Shown piece after piece: positions 15,942 to 61,053 of a DNA stretch of 64,000 bases (position 1 is its first letter; every line of letters begins with the position of its first letter). The notes under the pieces are model-generated. The model saw nothing but the letters and a program-made list of their open reading frames with translations. It was not told the DNA's origin and searched no databases. The DNA lies in NCBI GenBank assembly GCA_034112445.1, contig JAWUVI010000021.1, forward strand, positions 12,815-76,814. The letters run 5' to 3'. This DNA is from Cellvibrionaceae bacterium (GTDB lineage Bacteria; Pseudomonadota; Gammaproteobacteria; Pseudomonadales; Cellvibrionaceae). Made by a program: the position numbers and the translations under genes.

Positions 15942-16754
15942 TTACAAACTGGCTAGACACTTAATTCCCGCTGGTAATTCTCCTTTAGGGTTCGCCAACT
16001 CTGCTCTGATTCGATAAGTCCCACTGGCTGCATCAATAATAGGGTCAACCATGGTGATTTTCGCTTGGTATTGACCATTAATCGGTGCCTCTGGATAAAT
16101 AGTCAAACTCCCCTTGGCAGAAATACTACCAAAGCTTTCATAAGGCATAACCAATTCAACTTTTAACGGATCTAAACGCGCAAGCGTTAATACTGGGTCA
16201 GTGCCGACAAACTCTCCAGACTCGTTAAACAAATCAATGACCACCCCATTGATTGGGCTTTTAATTTTTCTTAAATCCAAAACCTCACGGGAGTGGCGCA
16301 ACTCTTTTTGTGACACCTGATATTCAGTAGCAAATTCATCCCGCTCATGTATTGATATGAGGTCTTCATTATAAAGACTGTCATTTCGTTCAACTTGGCG
16401 CTGGGCAAATTCAGACCGAACTTTTGCTAGCTCAACCGACGCTGCTTCGACACCAGACTTGAGTGAAAATATAGGCTGCCCCTTACGAACTTTATCACCC
16501 AATTTAACTGAAACTGAATCTATTACGCCAGGTACTGGACTACTAATATCCACACGCATACTTGGCTCAATCATGCAGCCCATGGCCGGCAAATACTGTA
16601 TCACCACTGGTTGAGTAAGCTTGTTTTCTAGCGTGCTGGTTTCTATAGCACTTATCTCTAATGTATTTACCCCTGAAGTACTTGGCTCTTGAGCCAAGCT
16701 GGAAACACACACACACGATAAAATAAAGCTCGCTAGGCATTGCTTCAATGCCAT
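15942..16754 (-). CDS. Exported HlyD/membrane-fusion-protein-like periplasmic adaptor (short form)
   Basis: 270 aa. Signal peptide MALKQCLASFILSCVCVSSLAQE. Lipoyl/barrel-sandwich halves (GVIDSVSVKLGDKVRKGQPIFSL and IKSPINGVVIDL) separated by a short helical hairpin. AGGAGG Shine-Dalgarno 6 nt upstream. The start overlaps the SecA-like stop by 10 nt. Confidence 0.75.
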   Translation of the reverse strand: MALKQCLASFILSCVCVSSLAQEPSTSGVNTLEISAIETSTLENKLTQPVVIQYLPAMGCMIEPSMRVDISSPVPGVIDSVSVKLGDKVRKGQPIFSLKSGVEAASVELAKVRSEFAQRQVERNDSLYNEDLISIHERDEFATEYQVSQKELRHSREVLDLRKIKSPINGVVIDLFNESGEFVGTDPVLTLARLDPLKVELVMPYESFGSISAKGSLTIYPEAPINGQYQAKITMVDPIIDAASGTYRIRAELANPKGELPAGIKCLASL

Positions 16755-18832
16755 TTACTACCTCCTAAAAATGCTAAGGATGAACGTTCTTTCTCATCCA
16801 TCTTTAATGTCATTTTACGTTCACCAGCATGTTTCAACTCAAGCCGCCACTGACAATAACGTTGCAACCAACGAGCTAAGAAATTAAACGCAAATGGGAT
16901 TTTCCCGCTGACTAGAATGACTAATTTAGATAAATTTTTACCGTACATTCGAACCACAGAATCATCTAATGCCAAGATATATTCTACGCTGCCAGGATCA
17001 CCTTGTCTGGCTGATCTTCCAGCCAATTGCCTATCAACTCTCGCTGAATCATTCAGTTCGCAAATAATAACGTGTAAACCACCTGCCTCTCTGCATTCTT
17101 TATCGAGTTTTATATCGGTACCACGTCCTGCCATTGATGTGGCAATAGTAATGGCACCACTCACGCCAGCATCAGAAATAATTTCAGCCTCGGCACCATC
17201 TTGTTTTGCTGTTAGCAAAAAGTACGGTTGCTGCATTTCATCCATAATAGCCGCTAGACTTTCAGATTGATGTACCGAAGCTGTACCTATGAGAACTGAA
17301 CGTCCATCTAAAGCTTGTTTAACCGCTGCATCAACAATCACTTTTTCTTTACTGGGCTGATCGCGCAGCACTGTGTAAGCCGTGATTTTACGCAGTGATT
17401 TTTTTAACAGTGGCACTTTTTTTACAGGTAAATTATAAACCTTTAATAACTCAGACCGAACCTCTTTGGCCGTACCTGTCATACCAGCCACATTAAAATA
17501 TTTCTTAAAGAAATTTTGATAACTGATTTTGGCCAGTGTTTTACGTGGTTTGGTTAAAGGACAGCCCTCTTTAATTTCTATCAGTTGATGTAAGCCCCCT
17601 TCCCACGATCTATCTCCAGCCGGACGACCGGTGTACTCATCGACAATAACAATTTTGTCATCATCGACTATGTAGTGTTTATCTAAATCAAACAAATACA
17701 AAGCGGTTAAAGCTTGAGTCAACATTTGTTGGCGTCGAATGAGGTTGTACCACGGAGTATTTAAATCCAAACATATTTCTTCTGCAGCCTTACCACCTTC
17801 TTTAAGCATAACAATTTTACGGTTCGGCCAATCTATTTCATAGTGTTTACCATCGACCAAGTTACGAGCAACATCCAACACGGTTCGTAAAAAATCTTCT
17901 TCATCGTCCATATCGACTTCGCCACCAGAAATCACTAATGGGGTGCGTGACTCATCTATAAATACACTGTCAGCCTCATCGACTAAGGCAAAATTCAAAC
18001 CTTGATGCATAAGATTATTTAAAAAACCGGTATCGTCTTCGAGTACTTGGCGATGAATATCCAATGAATCTTGGCGTTCATCTAAAACTAACGAGTCTTT
18101 TAAGTAATCAAATACCAATTCATTATTTGAACAATAAACAATGTCACCGGCATAGATCGCCTTGCGGTCTTCAATGGTGTGCTCATTAATGATCGCCTGA
18201 GCACGCAAACCTAAATAACTGTAGAGCGGCAGCATTTCTTCACAGTCGCGCTCAGCCAAATAATCGTTGGTGGTAATTACGTGAACTTTAACACCGGCCA
18301 TTGCAGCGGTAGCGGTAGCCAATGTTCCGGCTAATGTTTTCCCTTCTCCGGTAGCCATTTCAGCCACCATGCCTTGCAATAAAATGAGCGACGCCCGAAT
18401 TTGGGTGTGATGATGACGCATACCTACAGAGCGCCCTGCAGCCTCACGGATAAGCGCAAATGATTCAATCACAGTCTTATTGTTTAGCCCACAACTAAGT
18501 AATGTAAGTTTGACCCGAGCAACTTCAGCTAAAAAATCTTCTTCCGATAATGCCGTATAAATATCTGATTGTTTAATGATTTTTTTAACGAGATGGCCGT
18601 CATTGATGAACAACTTTAAAATTGGAAACAGAACGGTTCGATAGGTTCCTCGTAAAAAACTATCAAGCCATGTGAGTTTAGGAATCGTTTTCTCAGGTCG
18701 ATTCTTGATTGAACTCATTTGCCGCATCGGGTATCGGAACAGAAGGTTTCTCAATGAAATAGACGGTAAAGATGTTGACCTTACAGATGTTGACCTTAAA
18801 GACTTCAATTTAAAAAACAGTTTATTAAACAT
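16745..18832 (-). CDS. Truncated SecA-like motor ATPase (NBD1, preprotein cross-linking domain and NBD2 only)
   Basis: 695 aa. Colinear with E. coli SecA from about residue 60 to the start of the scaffold helix. Matching segments: GMRHHHTQI, EMATGEGKTLAG (Walker A), VHVITTNDYLAERD, YCSNNELVFDYLKD, ALVDEADSVFIDESRTPLVISG (Walker B), YIVDDDKIVIVDEYTGR, WEGGLHQLIEIKEG, ISYQNFFKKY, GMTGTA, ATSMAGRGTDIKL, GGLHVI and RVDRQLAGRSARQGDPGS. It ends about 75 aa after NBD2. It therefore lacks most of the helical scaffold, the wing domain, the two-helix finger and the C-terminal SecB/zinc-binding tail. It carries a basic N-terminal extension of about 55 aa. Confidence 0.85.
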   Translation of the reverse strand: MFNKLFFKLKSLRSTSVRSTSLPSISLRNLLFRYPMRQMSSIKNRPEKTIPKLTWLDSFLRGTYRTVLFPILKLFINDGHLVKKIIKQSDIYTALSEEDFLAEVARVKLTLLSCGLNNKTVIESFALIREAAGRSVGMRHHHTQIRASLILLQGMVAEMATGEGKTLAGTLATATAAMAGVKVHVITTNDYLAERDCEEMLPLYSYLGLRAQAIINEHTIEDRKAIYAGDIVYCSNNELVFDYLKDSLVLDERQDSLDIHRQVLEDDTGFLNNLMHQGLNFALVDEADSVFIDESRTPLVISGGEVDMDDEEDFLRTVLDVARNLVDGKHYEIDWPNRKIVMLKEGGKAAEEICLDLNTPWYNLIRRQQMLTQALTALYLFDLDKHYIVDDDKIVIVDEYTGRPAGDRSWEGGLHQLIEIKEGCPLTKPRKTLAKISYQNFFKKYFNVAGMTGTAKEVRSELLKVYNLPVKKVPLLKKSLRKITAYTVLRDQPSKEKVIVDAAVKQALDGRSVLIGTASVHQSESLAAIMDEMQQPYFLLTAKQDGAEAEIISDAGVSGAITIATSMAGRGTDIKLDKECREAGGLHVIICELNDSARVDRQLAGRSARQGDPGSVEYILALDDSVVRMYGKNLSKLVILVSGKIPFAFNFLARWLQRYCQWRLELKHAGERKMTLKMDEKERSSLAFLGGSKWH

Positions 18833-20969
18833 TAAACTGCTCCAAAAAGCTGCGTCTGACGCTGCGATAAACGCGCCAAAAAATAGGTTCTTCGATCAAG
18901 TTAAATTTAACAAAAAATCTCTCTTCAACACGCTCAAGTAAAGATTCATCCGTCACCACACGAACCAAAACAAAATTCTCAACCGCCGTAGGGGCATCTG
19001 ATTTACTCGGATCAATGACTAAATCACCGCCAGCTTCAGTCGATAAAATAACACTGGGCAACTCCTTGGTTACCTGTGGAGTAACATTGAGCATCTGCGC
19101 ATTAAATTCAACTTGGCGATCAGAAGCAGGCCGAACATCTATAGAGTTTGTATCTGCTAGAACTTGCTCTGCCAAGCCCTCAGGAATAAGAACTTTAAGG
19201 GTTAGCTTATCGTCAGCTGACAACACGTAACCAACCAATTCACCACGTTTAAGAAAGCCACCTTGAAAGGAATCGATTTTAGACAAAACTACCTTACCAG
19301 GAGATAAACTGGTTACTTTGGTTTGTTCAAGGTGGGTTTGAATTTCGTAGTGTTCGCGCTCTAATCGTTTTTTCTCTTCTTTGATCAATAAAAATTTAGC
19401 TCGATCGGCATAAGAGGCTTGAAGTCTTGCCTCTGTAGCTTGTAGTTGAGCGTTCAACACCGCTAACTTGTCTTCAAGCTCATAGTTCTTCAAGTTGATA
19501 AGAGTTTCACCTATAGCAACCTGCTCACCACTTTTTTTCACTATGCTATCAATAAAACCAGACTCACCCGCATACAAACGTTGTTTTTCATTCACCCACG
19601 AAACTCCTGAAACAGTAACACTATAGGGCAAGGGAATTTCAAACAACAATATCCAGAAGCTCGCCGTCACGATAACCATAACCATGATTGGATTTCGCTT
19701 GGATGTTTTAAATTCATTATCGGTAAAAGGTTTGCTCACCGTTTTTGAAAACGGCATTAACCAGCCAGAGGTAAAAGCCCATATAGCCAAAAGAATACCG
19801 AGGATAAAGTATTTCTGACCAACAAATATAATAATGGATATCGAAATAAATAAACGATAAGCAAAGGCGAACATATTGTAGAAGAAGAGCCAATAAGCTT
19901 CGCGTATATCCACCGCTGGACTCATGACAGATTTAATATTGAACATATAGCGTTTACATAAATACCCCCAATAAGACGTCGCCTTTTTGGCCAAATTGGG
20001 GATTTCTAAATAATCTGACAAAGCAAAATAGGCATCAAACTTTAGCAGCGGATTACCATTAAATAGCAGCGTTGAGATACCCGCCATAAAAACAATATTG
20101 AACAGTAAGGCTTTTAAAAATCCAGCCTCTGAAATATTCCAAATAATCAATGCTACCGCGGCAATGAACAGCTCAACGATCACGCCTGAAGCCGACACCA
20201 TAATCCGCTGATATTTACTGGCAAAACTGGCCGACTCTGACGCGTTCACATAAGGCATGGGGAAAAATACCAAAAACATAACGCCCACTTCCGAGACTTG
20301 ACCGCCATAGTAGCGTACACAAAACGCATGCCCCAGTTCGTGCAAAATCTTGATCAATGGATATAAAAACCACAACAGTAGTAAATTTTCTGCGGCTAAA
20401 ACACGATCCGATAAATTGGACGTCAACGCCTCATAATTTTGTGCCGCAATAACCAACGCGTAAGTAATGAATAATCCATAAACTAACCATAAGCGCCAAT
20501 TAATAAAACGCTCTAATACGGGACACAATTTATCCAGTAATTTAGTAGGATCAAATAGAGGGAGTTGAAGAGACATGGGAGACTGCACTTTTTGCAGCCG
20601 CTTTTTATCGCTTTTACTTTGTTTACGATGGAATAAATCCTTAGCATTAGCCGGAATATTCAGATGAATCATATCGGCTTGATGCAACGATGTTATTAAA
20701 GTCACCACCTCATCTTGAGTCGGCATATCTTTTTCAAGCTGATTGCCAGACTCTTCCCACATTTCATTAAGGGTGTGCTGACCATCCATCATGCCAATCA
20801 ATAAATAGGCGTGAGATGAAAAGAGTTGAACCGTACCAGAAATGGTATCGCGTAAAACGTACCAACGTTCATTGCGGTGAATCTGTGATGAGATATCGAT
20901 TTGGACTTTGAGTTTAGGTTTCAGGTTTTCAACCCGGTACCAATTTTTACTGAAGACAGATACTGACAT
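18825..20969 (-). CDS. Polytopic M50 (site-2-protease-like) zinc metalloprotease fused to a C-terminal HlyD-like adaptor domain
   Basis: HExxH in a TM helix (ILHELGHAFCVRYYGG) and a downstream N-x-x-P-x-x-x-x-D motif (FNGNPLLKFDAYF). There are several TM helices. The C-terminal part has barrel-sandwich and coiled-coil character (SGFIDSIVKKSGEQVAIGETLINL ... SLSPGKVVL). The N-terminal ~90 aa (NWYRVENLKP...WYVLRD...LIGMMDGQHTLNEMW) resembles a PqqD-like peptide-binding domain. The ORF track extends to a TTG at 21005. The ATG at 20969 (MSVSVFSKNWYRV) lies 4 nt after the upstream stop and looks the more likely start. Confidence 0.75.
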   Translation of the reverse strand: MSVSVFSKNWYRVENLKPKLKVQIDISSQIHRNERWYVLRDTISGTVQLFSSHAYLLIGMMDGQHTLNEMWEESGNQLEKDMPTQDEVVTLITSLHQADMIHLNIPANAKDLFHRKQSKSDKKRLQKVQSPMSLQLPLFDPTKLLDKLCPVLERFINWRLWLVYGLFITYALVIAAQNYEALTSNLSDRVLAAENLLLLWFLYPLIKILHELGHAFCVRYYGGQVSEVGVMFLVFFPMPYVNASESASFASKYQRIMVSASGVIVELFIAAVALIIWNISEAGFLKALLFNIVFMAGISTLLFNGNPLLKFDAYFALSDYLEIPNLAKKATSYWGYLCKRYMFNIKSVMSPAVDIREAYWLFFYNMFAFAYRLFISISIIIFVGQKYFILGILLAIWAFTSGWLMPFSKTVSKPFTDNEFKTSKRNPIMVMVIVTASFWILLFEIPLPYSVTVSGVSWVNEKQRLYAGESGFIDSIVKKSGEQVAIGETLINLKNYELEDKLAVLNAQLQATEARLQASYADRAKFLLIKEEKKRLEREHYEIQTHLEQTKVTSLSPGKVVLSKIDSFQGGFLKRGELVGYVLSADDKLTLKVLIPEGLAEQVLADTNSIDVRPASDRQVEFNAQMLNVTPQVTKELPSVILSTEAGGDLVIDPSKSDAPTAVENFVLVRVVTDESLLERVEERFFVKFNLIEEPIFWRVYRSVRRSFLEQFNV

Positions 20970-20973
20970 AAAC

Positions 20974-22839
20974 CTAGCCCCAGAAAGACCACAGTTTAAG
21001 AGCAAGCCACTTTCTTAAATCGTGAGTCCAAATATCTATCAGCAGGCGCCGGTCTACAAACACCTTACCTACCCCCACCATGCCCGGTCTAAAGGCAACC
21101 TCATTGGAGTCAAAACCGGCCTCTACACGGTAAAAGGTACTTTTGTCCTTCACTTCAGTTATGGGCGTGATTTTTTCAATGGTGAACTTGAACTCCTGAC
21201 TCGACAGAGATGAAAACAACACATGACCTTGCTGTTCAAGCTCAACGTCTAAGATTTTATATTCACTGACAAATAAGATAAGTCGATAATCATTTAGCGG
21301 CGAGATTTGATACAGCTCTTCACCTTGATTCACCGAACCACCAACTCTCTTACTTAAATCCCCGGCCACGACCAAAGAATCAAACGGAGCCTTAAGAATG
21401 GAGCGTTCCAGTTGACTCGTGGTAACCGCTAATTGTGCTCTCGACTGTGCCATTTTGGCGTACAGTATTTGCGCTTTTGAACGATCATAAGCCGCCATCG
21501 ACTCATTGTATTCTTTATTATCTTGCTCTATTTGGCTTAACCATTTGATTCTTTCGAGGCGTAAATCACGATCCTCCATGGCTAACAATTCGCTACCTTG
21601 TTGAACTTGATCACCGGCACTGACTTCAACCGATTTAATAAAGCCATTATAAGGAGCAGAAACGATTCTTATTTGTCTGGGTTCTAAAGTGACATCGGCA
21701 TTGACCGTATAACCCCCTTCAACCACAGAGAAAAAGACTAAAGCAAAGACAGAAACAATTAAGAATATTTTTCTTTTAAGGTAGCCCGGCGCTAACATCC
21801 GCTCTAGTTGTTTACGCGACTGTTTAGCTATATGAGTAAATAGGGAAACTTGAGCTTGTTTCTTTTCATTAAGAGCCAACCCAACCAAAGAGGTTGTAGC
21901 TTCTATAAAATTAATATCGTGCTCTATAAAAGGTTGTTCCGCTGTTCTTTCAAACAACGCCATCGCGTATATATCATCATCTTTAACCAGTGGAATAATG
22001 AGTATCTGAGAGTTGTGATGACTGAATGATAATTTTTCAGTGTTGTGACAGATAATGTTTTTATCATCGATTAAAGGCCACCGAATTATAGAGCGCTGAT
22101 CAAATGATTCCTGCATCGCTGCGCGCATTTTCTTAGCCGATACCGAACGTAAATCATTATCGGTACTGCCTGATATTACGGCCAGTTTTATCTGTTGGTG
22201 TTTAACAAAACCGAAACTAACGCGTTCACAAGAGAAAACCTTGGCTAAATTATCAGCCCACTGGAGTGCAGACTCGTGCCATTCATCAGCTTTAGTGACC
22301 GACAGATAGCCATCGAGTGTAATATTTTGACGTTTTACTAATGCGGCCTGTTGCTGCCCTGCAGACGATTGATAAAAAAGCTCAACCCACAAACACAGCC
22401 ACTCTAGGCGTGACATGAAGGTTTCTATTTCTTCGGCTTTCGTTAATATCACTCGACATGAAAAAACCGCTTTAATCTCAACGCCTAACTTAATTGGATA
22501 GGCAACGCCATAGACACCGTGTTCATCCTGTGGGATAACAATCGGGGACTGACTATGTGCGGCTTCATCAATAAGATCACCCAATAAATTGGTTAGCTCA
22601 GGATCTTGAATCGAAGCGGCAACAGGCTTAAGTCGACTGGAACTGTCGTCAGCGGTTAATAGTGCATCCGTTATACCACTGGTTTCTTGTAGGCAGTATT
22701 CCAGCCAAACCTCGTACCAATCCGCATCTTTTGCCGATTGATTTAATTGATCAAGGGTGATGTGAGACCTGCCAGAAAACGACTCAACGGAAATGACTGA
22801 ATCGTCGTTATTCTGAGTTAATGAAGTATCTATATTCAC
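20974..22839 (-). CDS. Cytoplasmic GAF-like sensor region, single TM helix and periplasmic HlyD-family adaptor
   Basis: 621 aa with a GTG start. The N-terminal ~340 aa has GAF-like patterns (VSFGFVKHQQIKLAVISGS ... LIIPLVKDDDIYAMALFER). TM helix IFLIVSVFALVFFSVVEGG. It then has HlyD features (APYNGFIKSVEVSAGDQVQQGSELLAM, a long coiled-coil, ILKAPFDSLV, GEELYQISP). Confidence 0.7.
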   Translation of the reverse strand: MNIDTSLTQNNDDSVISVESFSGRSHITLDQLNQSAKDADWYEVWLEYCLQETSGITDALLTADDSSSRLKPVAASIQDPELTNLLGDLIDEAAHSQSPIVIPQDEHGVYGVAYPIKLGVEIKAVFSCRVILTKAEEIETFMSRLEWLCLWVELFYQSSAGQQQAALVKRQNITLDGYLSVTKADEWHESALQWADNLAKVFSCERVSFGFVKHQQIKLAVISGSTDNDLRSVSAKKMRAAMQESFDQRSIIRWPLIDDKNIICHNTEKLSFSHHNSQILIIPLVKDDDIYAMALFERTAEQPFIEHDINFIEATTSLVGLALNEKKQAQVSLFTHIAKQSRKQLERMLAPGYLKRKIFLIVSVFALVFFSVVEGGYTVNADVTLEPRQIRIVSAPYNGFIKSVEVSAGDQVQQGSELLAMEDRDLRLERIKWLSQIEQDNKEYNESMAAYDRSKAQILYAKMAQSRAQLAVTTSQLERSILKAPFDSLVVAGDLSKRVGGSVNQGEELYQISPLNDYRLILFVSEYKILDVELEQQGHVLFSSLSSQEFKFTIEKITPITEVKDKSTFYRVEAGFDSNEVAFRPGMVGVGKVFVDRRLLIDIWTHDLRKWLALKLWSFWG

Positions 22840-22911: not shown

Positions 22912-23199
22912 TTATTCGGCGTTATCACCAATAGCACCAAAGCGGTTCTCATACTCATCGACTACTTTACCCAACAACAAACTCAAACGTTTGGCCGCAT
23001 ACGGGTTTAAAATAATACGATCAGAAAGGTTAATCGCCACTTCTTTCTGGCCCGTATGCCATGTCTGATTGGTTCCAAACAATAATGTGACTTCCTCACG
23101 AGTACTCGACACATTACACACATTCGCATACGAACTGCGCATTTGTGAATCATTCCACGTTAATTTTGGTGTGTTTTGCGCCTGCTTTTTATCGGTCAT
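22912..23199 (-). CDS. Small cytoplasmic protein, DUF3467-like
   Basis: 95 aa with an AAGGA Shine-Dalgarno upstream. Pattern SSYANVCNVSSTREEVTLLFG...RIILNPYAAKRLSLLLGKVVDEYENRFGAI matches my recollection of the DUF3467 family. No signal peptide. It lies immediately downstream of the giant gene (42-nt gap). Confidence 0.6.
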   Translation of the reverse strand: MTDKKQAQNTPKLTWNDSQMRSSYANVCNVSSTREEVTLLFGTNQTWHTGQKEVAINLSDRIILNPYAAKRLSLLLGKVVDEYENRFGAIGDNAE

Positions 23200-23241: not shown

Positions 23242-26200
23242 TTATTTACTCGTCTTACGACGAACTAGCTCACCATCACTCCAAGTAAACAGATTCTGCT
23301 CTTTGGCTTTTTGTGTCATTAATTCTTCTGAATTCTCAACACTGTAGCTCTGTTTGTTTTGGGTTTTCTGGCGAACTTGCCAGCCACGTCGCATGGCAGC
23401 CAAAGATATTACACCCAAGATAGCTTCAGCTCCACGACTAACACCTGAATTGTCATCGGAGTCAACGTTCGATACCTTCATCGTCGCATCATCCTCAGCT
23501 TTCTCTTGTGGAATTGGGTTGCCATCTTCATCAAGAAGCACACAGCCTTCCGGTATAATTGGATCGCCGTTTTCATCAAGTTCAACTTCAATGGGCTCGC
23601 CGTTTTCATCGACAACTTGAACGTCACATGAGACCTCAGACTCACCAGTATCTTCAGTTTCTTCACCAGCCGCCGTAGCCGGTAAGCTCTGTAAAAAGTC
23701 TTGCAGAGAATCATTAGCCGATGCGCCTTCACTTCCCGTACCCACTCGTACCAGCAATAAATTACTGCTGTGGATATTGGTGGTGAATTCGCCCGCTACT
23801 TGATAAACGTCTGACCAATCCAAGTCCAACTCAATGGCGAAGGCGCTGTAGTATTGCCCCTGAGTCGCACCGATTAATTCAAGCGATGCTGGATCCGTAG
23901 AAATCAGTACACCACCAACGGTTTGAGTAAAGCGACCATAACCACCCAAGGCGATATCTTCTATGAAGTTGGCCTCAAACAAATCACTCTCGTGTCCGCC
24001 AAGTAACCAATCAAATCCTTCACCACCATCAATGGTATCGGCGCCACCTTTTAACGGATCGATCGTATCAGCAAAGAACTGGCCGACTTGATCGTAACCG
24101 ATGATGCCGAAATCACCGAAGATGATGTCATTACCAGCGTCACCATAAAGTTCATCTTCGGCGCCGCCACCCATAATCCAGTCGTTGTCATCGCCACCAT
24201 GAACCACATCCTGACCGCCTTGGTCAGGCAAGGTGGTTACCATTTCAACAAAGACATCATTCTGGAAGGTCATTTCACCGCTGTCAGCCAAGACCATATC
24301 GTCCCCGGCACCTGCATCAACGGTATCGTCATCAAGGCCAGCAATAATACGATCCTTACCGGCACCTGAGTCGATTGAATCATCACCCGTAGTACTTGGG
24401 TCTGAATCAGTTGAGGCTAAGCGAGACGCTATGCCATTGGTGTATTCAATGATGCCGTTATCACCAAAGATGTCATCGTCACCACCGGTGGTAGTAATCG
24501 TGTCATCGCCCTGACCTGCCAGGATGGTGTTGTCTCCGCCAGTGCTGCGAATTATGTCCTTACCGCCATTGATGAGATCAGTGTTCTCGATGGTTTCAAT
24601 AACACCGGCTGAATCGTAATTAATCTCGCCGTTGTCACCAATGACGCGATCATTGCCTGTGCCCGTATCCACGGTATCACTACCTTGGCCTGCAATAACG
24701 GTGTTATCACCTTCGCCTGCATCAATAACGTCATCACCACCTAGGTCGGTTACCGTACTGGTGGCGCGAGTTAAAATTGCGTCAACATAGATAAGTTCAC
24801 CGCTGTCAGCTAACACAACATCGTTACCAGAGCTCGTGGTGATTTGGTCGTTATCTAGACCGGCAATAATACGATTATTACCAATACCCGCATTAATAAT
24901 GTCGTCGCCTGTAGTGGACTCATCAACATCAATGGAAACCAAGCGAGAAGCAACACCAGTGGTGTATTCAATTAAGCCGTTATCACCAAATATGTCATCA
25001 TCGCCATCGAGTGTAGTAACCGTGTCGTTACCTTGACCAGCAATAATAACGTTACCGCCATGGCCAGCGGTAATAACGTCATTGGCGCCATTAACAATAG
25101 ATGTACTGCTCAGACGATCAATAACTCCCGCTGTTGTCCAAATCATTTCGCCGCTATCGCCAATGATATGATTAGAACCCGCACCGGCTGTTACTGTATC
25201 TTCACCATTACCGGCGATGATCCAACCAGTAACGTCCGTTAATGTAATTTGATCATTACCGCCTTCAGTCTCAACTGTAGAGACCATGCGGGTAACAACA
25301 TCATTAACCACTTCTATTTGACCATTATCAGCTAAGACATGAGCCGTTCCAGCATCAACGGTAACAACATCATCACCGAGTCCAGCTAATACGCGATTAT
25401 TACCATCCGTTACCGTAATCGTATCTATTGATGCTGTAGCAGGCGTTATATCCGAAGTTTGTAGTAGAACAGCCAAGCCATTTGCATCGAAGTCAATAGA
25501 GCCATTGTCACCTATAAGATTATTGGTGCCGCTAGCATTAATCGTGTCCTCACCAAAGCCAGCAATAACACTGTTAACGCCAGTGCCGCCGACGGTAATA
25601 TCATCCGCGCCACCATTACCGGAGACATCGGATTCAATTCGCGAAATAACGCTACCGTTGTAAGTAATTGTACCTAGATCACCAATAACGACATTGCTGC
25701 CAAGGCTATCGATAACCGTGTCATTGCCTAATCCAGCAATGATTCGATCATCGCCTTCATTGCCCATTATGTAGTCATTACCCATAACACTGGTGCTATG
25801 CGATTGAATCGTAATAGCCATGGTGCTGGTGATTTCATCGGCAAACAATGGCGTCGCAGTACCATCGCTATTATCAGTAACTACGCCCTCATCGCCAAGG
25901 ATGATGTCAACACCTTCACCGCCGTATAAGTAGTCATCACTCGCACTACCAATAATCAAGTCATTACCAATTTGGCCATGGATACGTGTCGCCAAAGTTG
26001 AGCCACTGGCATTAACTGTATCGTCTCCATCTTGGCCAAAAATATCTAAGCGACGCGCTCCGGTATCGCCGCCAGTATTAAGAACGTCATGAGAGATGAC
26101 GTCAGTGACTGTGCTGGTAATACGATCGCTGCCTTCATTGCCATAAAGCGTGGTAACGCTAACATCCGAGCCTGTCACATCTTCAAAATAAACACCGGTG

Positions 26201-29200
26201 ACAGCAATAACATCAGCGCCTTGGCTAGCCCAAATAACCAGGTCGTTATTGTAATTTCCAGCGGTTGCGGTGTAAGTAATATCAGCTACGGCCATGCCAA
26301 CCATACGACCATTACTCAAAGTGGCGGTATCGGCTACTAGGCTGTCGAAATCACTGACGTACAGTGAGTTAGCATCAGCGCCGGCATCGATATTTAATAA
26401 GCCATTTATGCCATCTAAAGTACCGTGTGCCACGCCTATATTAGATAAATCACCATTAGCATCACTGGTGATATCTATTCGATCTTCACCGGCGTGCGTA
26501 TTGATATTAGTAACTGTGTTGCTGTTAGTTGATTGAACATTAATAACGTCAGCCGCAGAACCCGTATCAATATTGAGTGTGTCGACACCGTAATAGTTAA
26601 TACCGTTAGTGCGAGTTTCAAGCGAAGCATCACCAGCAGCAACGGTTAATGAAGCTGTTTCATGCTCACCTTGGAAGCTAATCAACCAACCCTCAGCGAT
26701 TTTAATCAAACCGAAGTTATTGGTATGCGGTAAAGCATCATTACTGTTATTTGGGTTCAGAATAAGAGTCAACGCATCTCTAAGAGCTTTTTCATCATCA
26801 ACTTCATTTCCAAGCCAATATTCAGCCCAATCGATATTGGTTGTGCCTAGCTCTTTGGGGCCCAGACCTTCAGGGTCAATTCCAATCACGGTTAATTGAT
26901 AATTACTGGTGCCATCAACTGTTAGAATCTGAGTGTTTCCTGCAACGCTAATAGGTGAACCATCACGTAGCGTGGTGATACGTGCATCGACAGAAATATC
27001 ATCCGCTGCGAACAGACCTGTTGTCGTAGGATCAATATCGACAGTCATTTGTGGAATATTAACACCCGACATTTCACCACCAAAGGTGATGCTGTATAGG
27101 TTGCCACTGGCTGATACTTCTCTTTCAACCGTAATGCCTTGCATATTGGTCATTTCTAGAAGAGTACCAAAGTGATTATTGAGTGCCATTGCCATGTCGT
27201 CAGAACTGATACCGTAGGCCATTGTGGCTATACCGTAATCAACCCCAAAGTTCATCCCGAAAGTTCCACCAGCGGCACGAATGGCTAACTGCTGTTTCTC
27301 CGCTAACGAAGGCATATCCAAACCAATCAAACTGGTGCGTCGAACTTGCAACTCATTGCTGACCTCATCACCAGAGTCATCAACATTAAGGATGTCTCCA
27401 ATATTATCGCCATCCGTTAGATCCGCTTCACCCATATCAATGGTCAGTAAGGCGGCAATTTCATCGGCCAACTGCTCATTACTGCGAACGGTAATAACAT
27501 CATCGCCCGCTTCAGTATTGATACTCGTCACACCTGAAACGGTTTTGACTAGAACATCGTCATCACCTTTACCGGTGGTGATGTTGGTTGCTCCCTCGTG
27601 AGTCGATTCAATGATGACCTGATCGATACCATGACCAAGGTCAAGACTCAGTATTTCAAGGCCTTCATAATGAATACCACCAGTAATATCAGTACCCGCA
27701 ATGGTCACATCATCGCCCATACCTAAGCCGTAAACGCGGCTTTCCGTTATGGTGACGCTTTCATCGGCCGGGCTATTACCGTTGTATATATTCAATACAT
27801 CCACTTGGACAGCTTCATCCACTCGGGTATTGAGGTTTACCGGACGAATAAAGTATGAGTCGGTAGGCAGTATGGTCATGTCCTCCGGTAGATCTAAGGT
27901 CAAGGTCGTTAAGTCTTCAGAAATACCCAATATATCGACAACGGTGAGTAGTTCGCCATTGCGCATGATGGATATTTCATAAGGATTATTCTCAATACGA
28001 GGATCAAAACCATCGGCAAATTCGTTGGATTCAGGATCCCAATGTTCAGCATTTGAATCACTAAATTCATTGCCTGAGACAAAGGTAATTAAACCGTCTT
28101 CTGGGAATAAATTAGTTTCCAGAGGAAGCATGACAGGATTATTGAGTTTGTAATCCGCTCCAATTTGTTCTCCGCCGTTTATAAATACTGGGCCACGTAT
28201 TTGATTAACTCGCTCTGAGCCAGGCGCAAATACTTTGACATCACCTCCATCAATGACCAAATCGTTAAAGGCTTGGACATCTATGGTGCGAATGTCACTC
28301 CAATCTCCGGCAGCTCCAGACGTAAATACTTCACTAGAAACAATTCCAGAATTTAAAATCACCTGAACCTCAGGGTCGAGTTCAGCGGCGTCGGTGAAGA
28401 CTAAATCACCGTTATAGGTTCTGGTTTCAACACCGGCAAAATCAACGGTCACGTCGGCATCTGGAGCACCCGAAAGAACCATGAAGTAATTGTCATCTTG
28501 CCAGTTTGGTGAGGTGTTATAGTCCAGATATTTATCCGCTACATCATAAGTGATTTCATAACGATCACCTTTGTTAATAACGATATCGGTACGATCTAGA
28601 GTAAACGTATCCGACTCTACGTCATAGAATGCAATGGTCGAAGATTCACCCGCATCTACACCCGACAACATAGTCAACGTCATACCTTTCAAATCAACAA
28701 AGTCTTCATCAAGACCATGCCCATCAAGAGAGATATTCAGTTGATAACTGTCAGTCATCCCCTGCTCCCATGTACTCGAATAAAGTACGTTATAGTCAGA
28801 GGTCGTGGTGGAGCTATAGGCCGCTAAATGGATGGCCTCAGGATCAAAGATGTCACCATTCAATTCATAATCGTATACATAGCTGGTTGTTATCACGTTA
28901 GCCGAACGGGAATAGTTAACTTCATAACCTACTTCAACACTGTAAAATCCAGCCGTATCAAACAATAACAACAGCATTGGATCATTGATGTCGGTACTAC
29001 CAACATCCAACTCGTCACTTAAATCCATTATTTCACTATTAGGAATGAGCACTCGGCTCTCGCCAGTTCCCTGATAGATTTTCAAATAAGGAACATAACT
29101 CGCTGTATAGGTAGTAGTGGTGTTTATCTGTTGAATGGTAAGTTCATCAAGATAATCAACAACTTGAGATCCCCAAAAGGTGTCTACCGTTTTAGTGTTA

Positions 29201-32200
29201 AATACAGGTGTCGATATAACTTCGTCATTCGTATAACTACTGGTGTCAGTAAACGATTTACCAAAATCAAGATCAAACAAGCCTTGCGCCGAGGCAATAC
29301 GTTGTTGACTGATAACGGCATCATCTATCTGATTGCCATCCCCAATGACAATAGTTGCACCATTAGCGGTTGCATTATTGGTTAAACCCGCGGCCTCTAA
29401 TTGCAACATCAACCAATCAGCAACAATATTATTAATTGGTTCTGCCACCGTAACAGCGGCTATGTCTGCTTGGGTCACTTCATGAGTAAACGCAACACCA
29501 TTCACCGTCACCATCCAAACATCCCCAATAGCCGGAGAGCTGTCAGCGTTCAGATCAAGAGTGAACTTATCCCAGCGATCGTGTGTATTATCCCATGTTG
29601 GAGCTGGTAAGATTTCTGCATTTTTAATGATTAAGTTGGCGTCTATTTGCCCTTCATCTGCAGCCACAATAACCAATTCATCTCCAGAAGCGGTTACATC
29701 ATAACCGCTACCAAAGTGAGTACTGATCGCCAAGGCCATAGCGTCTAGGTCAGTTGTTGCGGTGCCAATATAAGGTTGCACACCAGACCCGGCGATAGTA
29801 ACAGTCCATTGATCACCAGCTGAAATTAATCCGCTGACATCGATGCTTTGCTCATAAACCGTAACAGTACTTGTTGTAGGCGAGGCTGACGTAATGACAT
29901 CGGCATGCAACGTCAGATTGGGAGCCGCGCCATTTGTGCGTTTAATCAACAAAGTATTGCTATTGGAATCATAAGTAGCCGTATAAGAACCACCAAAATC
30001 ACCCGCTAAATTGTCACCGATGGTACCCAATGCCAGGGATCCATCTGATTCACTAGAGACAACCGTTGAACCTGACAAAACACTCCAATTAGCTGCTGTG
30101 ACGGTATTATCCAACACTAATTTTTGTTGATACTGGCTATTGGAGGAAGCAAACGTGCCATTACCTGAAGCGGACGAGGTTGCTGTCGAAATGCCGCTGC
30201 CACTTGCGGCGGCGATAGCCGTTAATCCAACGCTAAACGATGTTGAATCTATCGAAGTAACAACATAATCAGAACTGAGAGTATTACTTAGGTAAGAACG
30301 TAAATCAGCCGTAACATCCGCCAACGAAGGCCGATCTGCTACATCCGTGAAACTGGCCGTGTAGGTTTTAGTCACCCCATCAATATTGATGGTCCAAGAC
30401 TGGCCACTGCTAACTTGTCCGGCATCGCCTACGGTAAAGGTACGCTGAATTAATTCTGATGAAGCTCCTTGTATCTGCTCATCCTCAGTAACCGTAAGAG
30501 AAACGCTTTTAGAACCAGCATCGACAATTGAAAGCTCATTACCATTAGAAAATCCAGAGTACTCAATTCGGTAATCAGAACCTAGACCTGGTGCTGTGTC
30601 GGTTTTGACTTTAGCGATTAAGCCATTGGCTATTTCGGTGAACGTTGGGTTGCTATCGGTTGGGTAAGTAAAGGTATCACTGCCAATGGTTAGCGCCCAT
30701 ACCTGACCGGTACCATATGCAGATACAGAAGATAAAACAAAATCATTCTCTTGCAGTTCAGTCGACGACTGAGATGAAACTACAGTCGTCTCATGATCTA
30801 CGTCTAGTCGGAATCCAACTTCAGTATTGCTAATCTGTACACTCTTATTATCAGCACTACGAGTCACATTAAAGAAGGTGTTTACAGAGCCATAAAACTG
30901 AGTATTAAGACCAGTGCTAGCATGATTCAACTGGTTGAATAAATCTGTCGTTAGAGAAATATCTGTACTGCTAGGACCTGCAGTAACGGTGTACTCTTCA
31001 CCACTCACATTGACAGTCCAAACATCTCCATCAGTGACAGAAGCAGGAAAATCTATCGTAGAGCTAAGACGCCAGCCACCAGCTGCACCAGTATCACCAA
31101 CATCAGCAGGACTATTGTTGGGAGCTCCAGCTGGACCGGACAACATGTCGGTTGTTACTTCTATAACATAATTATCTTTGTAGTAAGAACCACCGCCTTC
31201 AATGGTGAGGTGATGCATTGAGTCATCAATAGAGCCATCAAGGGTACCAATATTATCATTGGGTTGATCGTACCAGCCGGTGTTCTTACCTGTGATGCTA
31301 TCCGTACTGACCTGTTGACCTGTGGTTAATTTAGATTCTGCTTCATTCTCCAACAGCGGTGCAGGTATAAATTTAAATTCGGCAACCTCTTGGTTTTCAA
31401 GACCGAGGTGTAACTTATAATCTACGCCTTCAGGAACACCGGTTCCGTAAGTCGCTGATTTGTTGGTTCTACCATCGACTTCAAGAACGTAGATGCCAGC
31501 CGTATTAATTGTTGCTGATAAGCGAGCATCATTGATGCTTGTGCTACCAGAGTCGGTTGTCGAACTACCAAAACCAGTAATACTCACTGGTACGTATTCA
31601 CCATCAATTAATTGCAAAAGGCGTAAACTACTCTGCCACCAAATACCATCTCCTGACTCATACCCCGAATCAATATCAGCGCTAAAACTTACAGGACCTT
31701 CTTTGACAACAAACTCGTAATAGTCACGGCTATCATCGCCGGTGCCATTAACGGTTATATGAGGTCTGTCTTCAGACAGTTCGATGTCATCGCTAACAGC
31801 CTCACTCCAACGTGCAAGACTGAGGTCTTGAGCCGTAGCCATGGAATCATTGCCCACTAACTCTTCTACTTCAGCAAGACCAACACTGCCTGTAAATAAA
31901 TTGCCAGCGGCATCAGTAATCGCTTCACCTTGAGCCAGTACACCTGTTGTAGCACGCTCTGCCACTTGGGTAGTGGAGTCACTTTGTAAGCGATAAGAGG
32001 TGATAATGTCATCGACAGTTGAGTCAATACCATCCATATCGGTAATGACTCTCTCAAGTAACAACAGAGTTGGTTCGTCACCATCGGCGATGGTGACGTC
32101 GACTACGCCCATATTAAAGCCGTCGTAGTTAGTGTCTTCACTGGTCACTGTATGAGTAATTCGCCCGTAGTGTGTTCCTTCAACCACATCATCCGCATTC

Positions 32201-35200
32201 GCTTTAAAGGTAACGGTTTGCACATCGCGCCAGTTGTCTTTAGTGAACTTGAGGGTCACCGAATTGGCAAAAGTTACACCATCATCATCACTGAGCGACA
32301 ACTGGCCATCAGTATCAGCCGTTCCGTCAGCCGCTATGGTAACGAATACATCTTCTGCAGGCTCTTGACTCAACACAACTCGATAGCTGTCTTTATTCAA
32401 CTCAGTAATATCTTCAGCAACTAATGGCGAACCATTGTTTTGACTGATAACAACAGACGCTGAATCTTCATCGATTACTTGTACCACCATACGGCTTAAA
32501 GAAAGCCTATCGTAGTCATCACCATCCTGATCGGTAAGACCTTCCATCACACTGTGACGAATTTCTACTGATTGATTGCCTTCGGCGTAATTATCTTCAA
32601 GCGCTGTCACAGTAATGGTTTGAGCAATAAACCAGTTACTTCTGTCAAATAATAACGTCGTGGCTGTTTCATTACCGTTAAGAGCAACGCCTTTAGCGCC
32701 AGCTTCTTGTTCATCTTCAGTTGGAACAACGGCTGTTGCAGAGATACGTACAACATCTTCTGGCGGTCTAGTTAAGACCACTTCGTAAGTTGTAACACTA
32801 TTTGGATCAACCAATGCAGTGCCGTCTTCATCTTCATAAGCGCGGAGTGACCCCGCGATTGGACGAATCAAGACACCGGCTTCATCGGCATCCATTACAT
32901 TAGCTGAAATCATTGCCTTGATGGCATCTAAACGCTCATCGGTGCTGGTTACAATATTTTCAATCAGGCCGCTATGACCAAGCAAATCATCGGCAACCAC
33001 CGATACAGCATCGCCATCATTACCACCAGCCATTTCAAAGGTGTCACTGCCTAAACCGCCAACTAAATTGAGCTGTACGTTTTCATTCGTGCTGTAAACA
33101 AAGAAAGTATCGTTACCTTCCATGCCATCGATGACCAGTTTTTCGATACCTTCAAAGTTGGTGAAGCGCCCTGCTCCATAAACGCCTGTATCAGTAATAA
33201 CAAAATCATCACCAAATTCAGTACCTAAAATAGTGACTGTATCTAAGCCATCACCACCAGAAATATTAACCGGAGCATTTAAAGCGTAACTGATAAAGTC
33301 AGCGCCCTGACCACCATTAATATTAGTAAACGGTGCTTGAGGATCATCAGGATTAACCAACACGAAACTACGAATTAAGAAGGTATCGTTATCTTCATCA
33401 CCATAGAGTGAAATTTCTTTAGTGTTTCGATAAATAGTGAAACTGTCTTCACCTGTGCCACCGCGCAATGTCGCGGGGAAGCTAATGCCGTTACTGATAA
33501 AACCTTTTGTAACCAACGTTGTATCAAAGATATCTTTTGGTTCAATAGGAGACAAACCAGACAATGCATCACGTGGCGAGTTGAATACCTGACCCACTTG
33601 GAAGTTATCGTTACCAGCATCGCCAAATACGGTTAATGCCGCGCTGGTATCATCGAAAGTAAAGTTGTCATCGCCGTCACGACCATAAACGTTAATGCCA
33701 CCATTGAGATCGCTACCATAGTTGACTCGCTCGATGTCACTTCCAGCAACACGATTACCATTGCTGTCTAATTCCATTTGCATCGCATTAATAGAGTTTG
33801 GACGGAACAGGAAGTCATCGACATCATCGGTGCCAAATACGTTCAAGGTATTTATGGCATCTAAATCACCAGCTGATTGATCATCAATATTAATAATTGA
33901 TGACCCAGAACCCGCCAGGGCAATATTGTAAAAATCTGAGCCCTCTTGACCATATAGGTTCAACACACCACCAATACCATTGAGGAATGTTTGTTGATTA
34001 AACTTGTCAAAGTTCACATTAATAGTGTCATCGTCACCATCACCAGCAAAAACAGAGGCCTGAAGACCTGTTCCTGAGAGATTAAGAGTGTCACCACCAG
34101 AGCCTAACTTAATCGTTGTATTTTCGGCTTTCTGTACAGAAACATGAACTTGATCGGCACCTGATCCTGTATCCAAAACCACTCGATTAAAGGTGTTATT
34201 AGCGATGATATTGACTTCATCGGCACCAAAACCTGAATCGACCGTTAAGTTATCCATAACGGTATCGCTGATGATATTAATTACATCTGCACCGCCACCA
34301 GTGTTAAGCGTAATGTCTAGCCAATCAACACCCTCGGTAATATTAACGGTATCGTCAATGTCATGAATTTGAGTCACCACATCATCAAGCGGATCATCAT
34401 TACCTTGATCGTCTATGTCGTCAGCATTAACATTGAACGTGGCATTCTCAAAACCGCGTAACCACAAGCCACTCCAATCGCTATTTTCAAGCTCAATGGT
34501 ATCGTAGCTAACGTCATAGGCCGTATAGTCAAGGCCATCTGTATCAAGTTTGCGACCTTCTACATAATCATTAGTAACTTTTACATCTACTGTGGTGGTT
34601 TTATTAACCGTGATGGTTTCTGGCAAGTAGAAACCAGCGGTATCTTGGAAGGTCGTAATATCAACACTGTACTCATCGCTCGTGCTATCACCGTTTTTAT
34701 CTAAAATGAGGCCGTCACTCAAGGTTGCCTTAACCGCAACGGAGTTTTGTAATTGCGTCACCCGAATCAATTTGTCGACATTAACTTGAGTGAATTGTGT
34801 TCCGATTCCTGAAGTATCAACACCACTCGGTGCCGCACTGATTAGTGCCGCACGATAAGCCGACCAGTTATCAGCCGTTAGATAGAGCTCTTCAGTTTCA
34901 CCGTATTTAACCCCAAAAGCATCTTTTAGATCCGCGGTATATTCCAGCAAATCTTCAAGCGCCACAGGCGCATTAAAGCGATTAATAGCAACGCCTTCTA
35001 GAGCTGGATCGCCATTGGCTGCCACACCATAGTACGAATAGGTGTAATAACTTGTATTCAATGCCGCCAAGGCATCGGCATAAGCCATTTCCATCGCGAT
35101 GGTATTGCCCTTTGGCGCTTCAATAGAGCTAGACACTGAGGTAGTAGGATCAGCAGTCATTTCGCCTACGGTATAAATAATACTGAGCAGACGCAGTGTG

Positions 35201-60543: not shown

Positions 60544-61053
60544 TTAAACTGCACTCAAACGAATGCCATACACCTGATAACTGTCACTGCGAATGGCCAG
60601 AGTGATTTTTAACTCACCCTCATCACCAAATTCACTTTGTGGAGAAAACTCAATTTCGTAATGGAGCACAAACACTCGAGCGTTACCTTTGGTGGCCGCC
60701 AAGGTCGAATAATTGTATGAACCCGATTCAATCGAGTGGAATGCTTTGCGTAACTTTTGGAACTCGGAGGTTATGTCTTCTCGAGTTAATTTGGCCTTAG
60801 TCGCCGAACCGAATAAATCGTATAATTTTTGGTCGTCGTTTTTGTTAAACGCATAGGTAAATTGCGACAACAAATGCCTGCGAATATCGGGAGTGATTAT
60901 GTCGGGAAGTTGATTATCTGAAGTCGATTGCGAGGCGTTTTGCGACGATATTTGGAGAGAGTTTTTAGCACTTATGTTTTGCTGGCCGAACCATACCGTG
61001 GCTGACAGATTCGTCAACAGAAGCACCACGACTAAAGCCCTAAAAAAGGTCAC
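60544..61053 (-). CDS. Hypothetical exported or membrane-anchored protein (first gene of the cluster)
   Basis: 169-aa ORF with a GTG start preceded by GGGAAG. N-terminal hydrophobic helix ALVVVLLLTNLSATVWF, a Ser/Gln-rich linker and then a ~110-aa globular part. It is 36 nt from the tolC-like gene. No family recognised. Confidence 0.55.
   Translation of the reverse strand: MTFFRALVVVLLLTNLSATVWFGQQNISAKNSLQISSQNASQSTSDNQLPDIITPDIRRHLLSQFTYAFNKNDDQKLYDLFGSATKAKLTREDITSEFQKLRKAFHSIESGSYNYSTLAATKGNARVFVLHYEIEFSPQSEFGDEGELKITLAIRSDSYQVYGIRLSAV

Follow-up and report, generated by a model that had tools for sequence, protein, structure and literature searches.

A conserved 'secondary SecA_DEAD / type I-related' locus was described in silico by Kamneva, Poudel and Ward (PLoS One 2015, PMC4452313). 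It comprises a SecA_DEAD paralogue, an M50-like HlyD protein, a GAF-HlyD protein and a further HlyD protein, sometimes accompanied by an OEP/TolC channel. The portions of that paper on which we draw cover the machinery only; they name neither a cargo nor a signal, and they state the role of the locus as unknown. A 64,000-nucleotide (nt) stretch of the genome of a Cellvibrionaceae bacterium (GenBank assembly GCA_034112445.1, contig JAWUVI010000021.1, positions 12,815 to 76,814; hereafter the window) holds an operon of this kind, in which a SecA_DEAD paralogue (SecA2), present in addition to the canonical SecA, adjoins genes for M50-like HlyD, GAF-HlyD and HlyD proteins. The same operon encodes a giant cargo protein of 11,951 amino acids (aa), which ends in a module with two conserved tryptophans (Trp-1 and Trp-2). 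This module is essentially confined to giants adjacent to such cassettes, where it is always C-terminal, and we predict it to be an uncatalogued type of C-terminal signal for a known cassette. We favour, with confidence that we would call evenly balanced, the proposal that the adjacent type I-like machine, which lacks an ATP-binding cassette (ABC) transporter, uses the last ~65-70 residues as a C-terminal signal for export or docking that is specific to the cassette. Literature searches on DUF3467, DUF4347, LEPR-XLL and SecA/M50/HlyD returned nothing on this signal, the 2015 study aside, and no experiment, cargo or signal turned up in the literature for the SecA-paralogue/M50/HlyD cassette.

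The giant and the parts of its C-terminal tail are as follows (window coordinates; AF2, AlphaFold2 model; pLDDT, predicted local distance difference test score).

23242..59097, minus strand: giant cargo open reading frame (ORF), 11,951 aa, with a LEPR-XLL-like N-terminal tag, a DUF4347-like region, a C-terminal RTX block and a 244-aa tail
23977..24048, minus strand: final RTX-type Gly/Asp repeat, residues 11684-11707, an AF2 beta-roll (pLDDT 74-88)
23665..23709, minus strand: short helix SLQDFLQSLPATAAG, with the (L)xxFLxxLP motif common to many gammaproteobacterial tails
23542..23628, minus strand: acidic loop bracketed by the cysteines (Cys) C11824 and C11852, inside three DENG(E/D)PI-like repeats (window 23506-23613)
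23434..23664, minus strand: acidic, mostly low-confidence linker upstream of the hydrophobic segment (net charge -24 at residues -140 to -66)
23380..23433, minus strand: module element A, the short hydrophobic helix GAEAILGVISLAAM followed by RRGW, whose tryptophan is the nearly invariant Trp-1 (W11906)
23347-23379, minus strand: linker QVRQKTQNKQS just ahead of element B, with which it shares the basic residues past Trp-1
23296..23346, minus strand: module element B, the helix YSVENSEELMTQKAKEQ (AF2 helix at tail residues 242-252, pLDDT 63-70)
23257..23295, minus strand: module element C, the beta-hairpin NLFTW-SDG-ELVRR, which carries Trp-2 (W11939) and has the family consensus (R/K)(R/K)ΦxxWxxG

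Because the last RTX-like repeat stops at residue 11707, the tail of the giant is 244 aa long, and its last 132 residues are encoded by window positions 23245-23640 on the minus strand, within one single ORF. The two strings singled out in the initial annotation of this region, SCDVQVVDENGEPIEVELDENGDPIIPEGC and SGVSRGAEAILGVISLAAMRRGWQVRQK, occur verbatim in the giant, as do the 45 residues past Trp-1, so that the layout described there stands. The label of a basic tail is weakened: residues -140 to -66 have a net charge of -24, and the end of the giant is of mixed charge and mildly, not strongly, basic, since the last 48 residues have a net charge of +4. Trp-1 and Trp-2 lie 33 residues apart, and 12 aa separate Trp-2 from the stop codon. 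The AF2 model of the tail, built on a 52-sequence alignment, has a mean pLDDT of only 61. It predicts a low-confidence helix for the hydrophobic run and, for the end, a helix and a beta-hairpin LFTW-SDG-ELV (pLDDT 63-74), the two strands of element C being placed at 256-259 and 262-265 (pLDDT 70-74). The region of the Cys loop and the DENGxPI repeats is modelled as beta structure (pLDDT 80-86).

The tail is conserved well beyond this genome. A same-genus giant (11,352 aa) and a same-family giant (12,076 aa) align with all 268 aa of the tail query, with 48% and 30% of positions identical, respectively, and in both cases the next gene encodes a DUF3467 protein, as it does in the window. Using DUF3467 as a neutral handle, we fetched 80 of the 244 loci found, with 10-kb flanks. 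The gene order giant, DUF3467, GAF-HlyD, M50-HlyD, SecA2 and HlyD is kept in ~70 of these 80 loci, which span Gammaproteobacteria, Desulfobacterota, Acidobacteriota, Latescibacterota and other groups, and in most loci the ORF whose end lies immediately before DUF3467 belongs to a giant too long for the 10-kb flank. Some apparently short ORFs were considered as complete cargos in which both termini could be read; they proved to be artefacts of masked stretches or of frame breaks inside giants, and were set aside. The two-Trp module, ~65-70 aa long, stands at the C-terminus of 59 of the 74 cargo-position ORFs. The initial annotation had named a tail not conserved in homologs as an argument against its proposal; compared among homologous giants, the tail is conserved.

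Across these 59 tails, the module starts with an acidic stretch (median net charge -6 before the hydrophobic run), continues with an uncharged hydrophobic run of median length 10 aa (range 5-16), with many small residues (A/G/S), that ends in (R/x)GW, and then turns net positive past Trp-1 (median +3), in a stretch that includes a helix-like ΦDxxxFxxL segment. It closes with (R/K)(R/K)(F/Y)xxW, often followed by xxG. At least 90% of the aligned tails have Trp-1, and Trp-2 is invariant in the alignment; the two are spaced by 24-41 residues (mode 31-35), and Trp-2 lies 0-41 aa from the stop codon. RTX repeats occur inside the last 700 aa in nine of ten diverse cargos. In the four loci whose SecA2-type gene is highly divergent (20-23% identity to the window SecA2 or no BLAST match; two confirmed as SecA_DEAD, of 635-647 aa), the Trp-2 motif of the tail is replaced by MVFDxxSGxL.

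Short or very divergent SecA_DEAD proteins of 528-647 aa are encoded at L041:14565-16472, L055:7443-9386 and L018:14500-16086, with 20-27% identity to the window SecA2 or no BLAST match. The tails beside SecA_DEAD proteins of this sort are variants, with either GWRRR...MVFDxxSGxL or a change of Trp-1 to Tyr with RRYSSW last. In three other cargos, a LysM domain above the Pfam cut-off separates the RTX block from the two-Trp tail, a hint of possible contact between the C-terminal end and peptidoglycan or some other N-acetylglucosamine polymer. The positions of these domains (Pfam) are approximate.

L027:9265-9408: LysM domain
L035:9342-9485: LysM domain
L066:9058-9201: LysM domain

The Cys-bracketed acidic loop, which the initial annotation had pointed out, is real, and it is lineage-specific, as a paired-Cys loop is found in only 17 of the 59 tails, the window's included. 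Cysteines are nearly absent from the cargos, the window giant having five in its 11,951 residues, of which C11824 and C11852 flank the loop. In the 148 residues before the hydrophobic run, 16 of the other 58 tails have two Cys, two have one and 40 have none; the Cys frequency there is 0.004, versus 0.0002 in the rest of the cargos. The usual loop is ~20 residues long and reads C-x3-5-DxNGxP(I/V)xLPEx-C, and the window form is enlarged, with its three DENGxPI repeats. It is plausible that a disulfide bridge forms across the loop after export.

A profile of the module built from the 59 sequences, the window's own included, matches the giant and nothing else among the 16,060 six-frame ORFs of its own genome. 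With a leave-clade-out profile, made without the window and its Cellvibrionaceae relatives and searched against the C-terminal 100-aa pieces of 3,575 ORFs, the window tail still comes first (E 0.0016; next best 0.15). Even a crude two-Trp regular expression is found in 42 of 73 cargo-position ORFs, versus 9 of 3,160 ORFs of the own genome. Among 1.84 billion cluster representatives, 95 protein clusters match at E <= 1e-3, always with the match ending within ~40 aa of the C-terminus; most of them are 5'-truncated metagenome fragments and a few are proteins of 5,000-7,300 aa. Each of 12 other genomes has a single strong match, always in the cassette-adjacent giant, and one of them has an extra weak second match (E 4.8e-6). 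In a class-level sample of 400 genomes, all three credible matches are followed by DUF3467 and GAF-HlyD genes; two weak matches in tiny frames have no DUF3467 or GAF-HlyD downstream. Scans with Pfam and NCBIfam, the latter on the last 552 aa and on the last 152 aa of the giant, gave no match in the tail beyond the RTX repeats (PF00353).

A comparison of two cassette types indicates which part of the machinery the module follows. The genome G054 contains a second cassette, in which two tandem giants tagged ALEPRILYDASG are followed by TolC, HlyD, GAF-HlyD and M50-HlyD genes, with neither DUF3467 nor a SecA paralogue. This type-2 cassette (the window's being type 1) was found in three further genomes, two of which carry type 2 only; both of the latter have one canonical SecA, and DUF3467 has no match in one and only a weak match, on a separate contig, in the other. 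A metagenome scan with the type-2 M50-HlyD yielded 80 more loci and 23 credible cargo tails. DUF3467 occurs in none of these 80 loci, and a SecA2-like match in only two, both on the opposite strand. The two-Trp profile finds none of the 23 type-2 tails (all E > 0.5). Trp is missing from the last 80 aa in 20 of them and none has two, versus at least two Trp in 56 of the 59 type-1 tails. Another motif, ΦS/TxQΦRAAG followed by an amphipathic stretch, fits 13 of the 23 by a crude pattern. The LEPR-XLL tag is present in all three type-2 cargos whose N-termini were examined, and one full-length type-2 cargo starts with ALEPRILLDGAG. Thus, the N-terminal tag is seen with M50-HlyD in both cassette types, and the two-Trp module goes with DUF3467 and SecA2. 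Because type-2 cassettes keep M50-HlyD and have module-free cargo tails, the module tracks SecA2 and DUF3467, not M50. A possible tie between a hydrophobic segment and M50 was considered and dropped, as the type-2 tails of G054 have a hydrophobic run and those of other type-2 loci do not. Type-2 cassettes in general (TolC-HlyD-GAFHlyD-M50HlyD; L121-L127 and L128-L207) are widespread, numbering more than 510 loci, and adjoin giants, and no ABC transporter is encoded in their loci.

The second conserved terminus of the cargo is its N-terminal tag:

58909..58971, minus strand: LEPR-XLL-like tag LAEQMEARNLLSADLAP (NCBIfam NF012209)

Against the NF012209 model, the window tag scores 13.5 bits at residues 43-63, below the 17-bit cut-off, and its motif ExRxLLSAD aligns with clear LEPR-XLL tags of other cargos. 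Eighteen giants have in common, at their N-termini, a basic stretch, then FExLExRxLLSAD, which is of the LEPR-XLL type, then a DUF4347-like region. Ahead of the motif, the window (58972-59097, minus strand) encodes a basic leader of ~40 residues that is common to gammaproteobacterial cargos; its pattern, MKYxFARxxQSKFxRxRELRKxxWN...RKNRY, is much longer than the tag model itself.

The genes that make up the operon with the giant are the following.

59179..60507, minus strand: TolC-family outer-membrane channel, its gene lying upstream of that for the cargo
22912..23199, minus strand: DUF3467 protein of 95 aa, beginning 42 nt past the cargo stop codon
20974..22839, minus strand: HlyD-family adaptor with a cytoplasmic GAF-like region, GAF-HlyD (Pfam/NCBIfam)
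18825..21005, minus strand: HExxH intramembrane metalloprotease (M50 / daptide-type) fused to an HlyD-type adaptor, M50-HlyD (Pfam/NCBIfam)
16745..18832, minus strand: SecA paralogue SecA2, 695 aa, with the preprotein cross-linking domain kept (Pfam/NCBIfam)
15942..16754, minus strand: third, small HlyD-type adaptor, 270 aa (Pfam/NCBIfam)

Judging from these domain assignments, the machine would consist of TolC, three HlyD-type adaptors, the M50-HlyD fusion among them, the SecA paralogue and DUF3467. The canonical SecA (a 910-aa frame) lies on another contig of the same genome, C18. Scans with Pfam and NCBIfam detected no ABC transporter gene in the operon, and none is found in the ~70 syntenic loci. 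The initial annotation thus rightly set this tail apart from canonical signals of the type I secretion system (T1SS), as the tail also matches no curated T1SS-target or CTERM model. The tail is tied, moreover, to the non-ABC machinery beside it, the module going with the neighbouring cassette. The M50-HlyD fusion is related to leader peptidases of ribosomally synthesized and post-translationally modified peptides (RiPPs) by Pfam/NCBIfam, and a PqqD-like domain proposed for its N-terminus finds no support by sequence, there being no Pfam match even at E <= 10. Just upstream of TolC, a 169-aa ORF (window 60544-61053, minus strand) with no Pfam or NCBIfam match may or may not be a member of the operon.

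DUF3467 is by far the most conserved part of the locus. Its homologues are 60-89% identical to the window copy across phyla, and an alignment of 60 of them has 25 invariant columns, which include YANVCN and one single invariant Cys. The AF2 model (pLDDT 69) has four strands and a long helix, and found no Foldseek match in the Protein Data Bank (PDB; best E 2.2), nor did the sequence match any PDB entry. A SecB-like or other known fold was entertained and is unsupported, because the model has no structural relative in the PDB. We consider DUF3467 to be a candidate receptor or chaperone for the two-Trp module.

Since the conserved tag is found only on the giants beside this machine, the tail is probably the machine's address label. 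By analogy, the module resembles a Sec signal peptide read backwards, with an acidic passenger side, a ~10-residue hydrophobic helix and a positive terminal side. After synthesis, the module would stay at the cytoplasmic face of the inner membrane and be bound there by the components peculiar to this cassette type: the SecA paralogue, being preprotein-binding, could read the hydrophobic helix and the flanking Arg/Lys residues, and either SecA2 or the small DUF3467 protein could read the helix-hairpin. The C-terminal end of the cargo would then dock at the HlyD/TolC duct, and the RTX block would emerge and fold outside, as in type I secretion. The position of the RTX block just upstream of the tail and the near-absence of Cys appear to fit such a C-terminus-first, type I-style export. 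The N-terminal LEPR-XLL tag may be the likelier client of the M50 protease. The binding partner of the module, the direction of export and the possible removal of the module are what we infer here. It is conceivable, although we rather doubt it as a whole, that the cargo bears two address labels read by different subunits: a C-terminal 'mirror-image signal peptide' read by the SecA-family motor, possibly adapted by DUF3467, and an N-terminal LEPR-XLL tag read by M50 for maturation or release, in an ABC-free HlyD/TolC export.

Several observations weigh against an export or docking signal at the C-terminus. The module is conserved as a pattern and not as a sequence, the mean column identity of the 59 tails being 19%, and the full module is missing in 15 of the 74 cargo-position ORFs. 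Among these 15, the loci L077, L078 and L082 (from Ramlibacter, Caldimonas and an Acidimicrobiales-labelled metagenome-assembled genome) have a different tail type, though L077 and L078 have SecA2, and L019 keeps the module with no SecA2 between M50-HlyD and HlyD. Searched against the whole 11,959-aa frame, the leave-clade-out profile scores a non-significant 6.4 bits, and it reaches significance only once the search is confined to C-terminal pieces. The co-variation of tail and SecA2 comes from comparing two deep cassette lineages, which falls short of a series of independent events. The true address could instead be the N-terminal tag, whose conservation exceeds that of the tail; the tail could then be an anchor or a release element. 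Finally, the own genome holds a Lap-type ABC exporter whose cargo is unseen.

The third tail type, ...LVNWxxSFxxFGxPxxPFG...FSFLxxxD, stands at the very end of the three cargos concerned, and in L077 and L078 it accompanies an otherwise normal SecA2 cassette with the small HlyD gene inverted. The Lap-type exporter lies at a contig end (C9:173240-177338 of the own genome; L114:5241-9338), where a TolC-OmpA fusion adjoins an ABC protein with a C39-like domain; the contig breaks off before the adaptor and cargo genes of this exporter.

That Lap-type exporter could in principle serve the giant, if the tail were an ordinary type I signal recognized by a classical ABC transporter from another part of the genome. 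Such signals show little conservation in general, and this tail does lie at the extreme C-terminus, after RTX repeats. We nevertheless find this explanation quite improbable, as nothing ties the exporter to the giant; the cassette, by contrast, keeps its synteny with the giant in ~70 loci, none of which has an ABC gene in the operon; in addition, the module pattern is conserved across phyla and tracks the SecA2/DUF3467 cassette, and no curated type I C-terminal target model matches. Still harder to believe is the tripartite sorting signal of the sortase, exosortase or rhombosortase type to which the initial annotation had likened the tail. The likeness is superficial: a hydrophobic stretch is followed by Arg-Arg, and an LPATAAG string occurs ~90 residues upstream. 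The sortase-type and stop-transfer readings both fail because the hydrophobic run is about half of transmembrane length (median 10 aa, versus ~17-23 aa for a transmembrane helix). The best 19-residue Kyte-Doolittle mean of the window tail is 1.18, and only 2 of the 59 tails reach the threshold of 1.6, which also disposes of the membrane anchor contemplated in the initial annotation. The sortase-type reading fails further because the residues past the basic pair, 45 of them conserved, form a second conserved element with an invariant Trp, so that the protein does not end there, because LPxT is not conserved (relatives have LPAPAAG and LPTPTHS), and because no NCBIfam CTERM model matches. No sorting enzyme was detected among the neighbouring genes, which were the only genes scanned, the whole genome not having been searched.

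Two other explanations, both of which we think unlikely, concern the membrane. The tail might be a C-terminal signal-anchor cut by the adjacent M50 protease, a cleavage site there having been one of the possibilities raised in the initial annotation. The tail would insert as a hairpin, with its basic end cytoplasmic and the short hydrophobic helix in or beside the protease, the cargo would loop through HlyD/TolC, and clipping near the helix would release it, mirroring signal-peptide processing. M50/site-2 protease (S2P) enzymes such as RseP do cut short hydrophobic segments, remnant signal peptides included, and the operon encodes an HExxH intramembrane protease-adaptor fusion related to RiPP leader peptidases. 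A C-in topology agrees with the charges, which are acidic ahead of the hydrophobic run and basic behind it; the run itself contains many small residues (A/G/S) and has GW at its end. Yet type-2 cassettes, which have M50-HlyD and are devoid of SecA2 and DUF3467, show the module in none of their 23 cargo tails, and it is the N-terminal LEPR-XLL tag that was seen to accompany M50-HlyD in type 1 and type 2 alike. Moreover, the hydrophobic run is shorter than typical S2P substrates, and no invariant residue resembling a cleavage site was found besides Trp. We therefore disfavour M50 cleavage of the tail, to which we leave a minor share of the probability. A comparable share goes to a C-terminal retention element: a SecA-type motor would export the giant N-terminus-first from the N-terminal tag, and the tail would stay at the inner membrane or in the periplasm and tether it. 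SecA normally drives N-to-C translocation, and the strong conservation of the N-terminal tag (FExLExRxLLSAD), the positive charge after the hydrophobic run, the LysM domain that in three loci follows the RTX block and precedes the tail, and that could bind periplasmic peptidoglycan, and the paired-Cys loop just upstream in 17 of the 59 tails are consistent with it. LysM and the Cys pair are each limited to a minority of lineages, however, the hydrophobic run is too short to cross a membrane, and type-2 cargos, which have the same N-terminal tag, are without such an element. An RTX block right before the tail is, furthermore, the hallmark of C-terminus-first type I export.

An export or docking signal at the C-terminus would be of practical value. 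Comparison of genomes brought the SecA-paralogue/M50/HlyD cassette to light in 2015, and a short, cargo-specific, portable module offers a direct experimental handle on it. Its cultivable carriers include Amphritea atlantica DSM 18887, Psychromonas marina NBRC 103166, Simiduia aestuariiviva CECT 8571, a Pseudomaricurvus species and Methylobacterium extorquens AM1. If a SecA-family motor does read an inverted C-terminal signal, the repertoire of SecA-type ATPases would be wider, and the secretion route would be distinct from ABC-driven type I secretion; for SecA-type ATPases, a C-terminal signal would be without known precedent. In addition, the module lets annotators spot cargo ends in fragmented metagenome assemblies, in which genes of 10,000 residues are almost always broken.

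The window operon is a member of the locus type of Kamneva et al. (PMC4452313), to which the present data add a C-terminal module that does not figure in the portions of that paper drawn on here. Similarly to HlyA-type RTX toxins and to LapA/MpIBP-type adhesins, the giant has an uncleaved-looking signal at its extreme C-terminus, directly after an RTX block, and like type I substrates it is very large, acidic, almost Cys-free and encoded alongside TolC and HlyD-family adaptors. Unlike type I secretion, the operon encodes a SecA paralogue, M50-HlyD, GAF-HlyD and DUF3467 in place of an ABC transporter; unlike type I signals, the module has a defined pattern, in which a hydrophobic helix ending in Trp is followed by (R/K)(R/K)ΦxxW; and unlike type I substrates, the cargo also has a conserved N-terminal tag of LEPR-XLL type. 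With LPXTG, PEP-CTERM and GlyGly-CTERM signals, the module shares its place close to the C-terminus of a surface protein and the succession of a hydrophobic stretch and basic residues. It differs from them in that its run is about half as long, no conserved signature lies directly ahead, and 30-45 conserved residues follow its basic pair, with no model match and no nearby sorting enzyme. Type-2 cargos (L121-L207) are also giants beside TolC, HlyD, GAF-HlyD and M50-HlyD, with a conserved element in their last ~50 residues, but this element is Trp-free and amphipathic, with a ΦS/TxQΦRAAG-like motif and mostly no hydrophobic run. As for Sec signal peptides, they have in common with the module a hydrophobic core (7-15 residues), positive charge on one side and a SecA-family ATPase, here encoded in the operon, whereas the module is C-terminal, has the inverted polarity (positive toward the terminus), carries an extra helix-hairpin and is devoid of a signal-peptidase motif; we propose this likeness as a functional analogy only.

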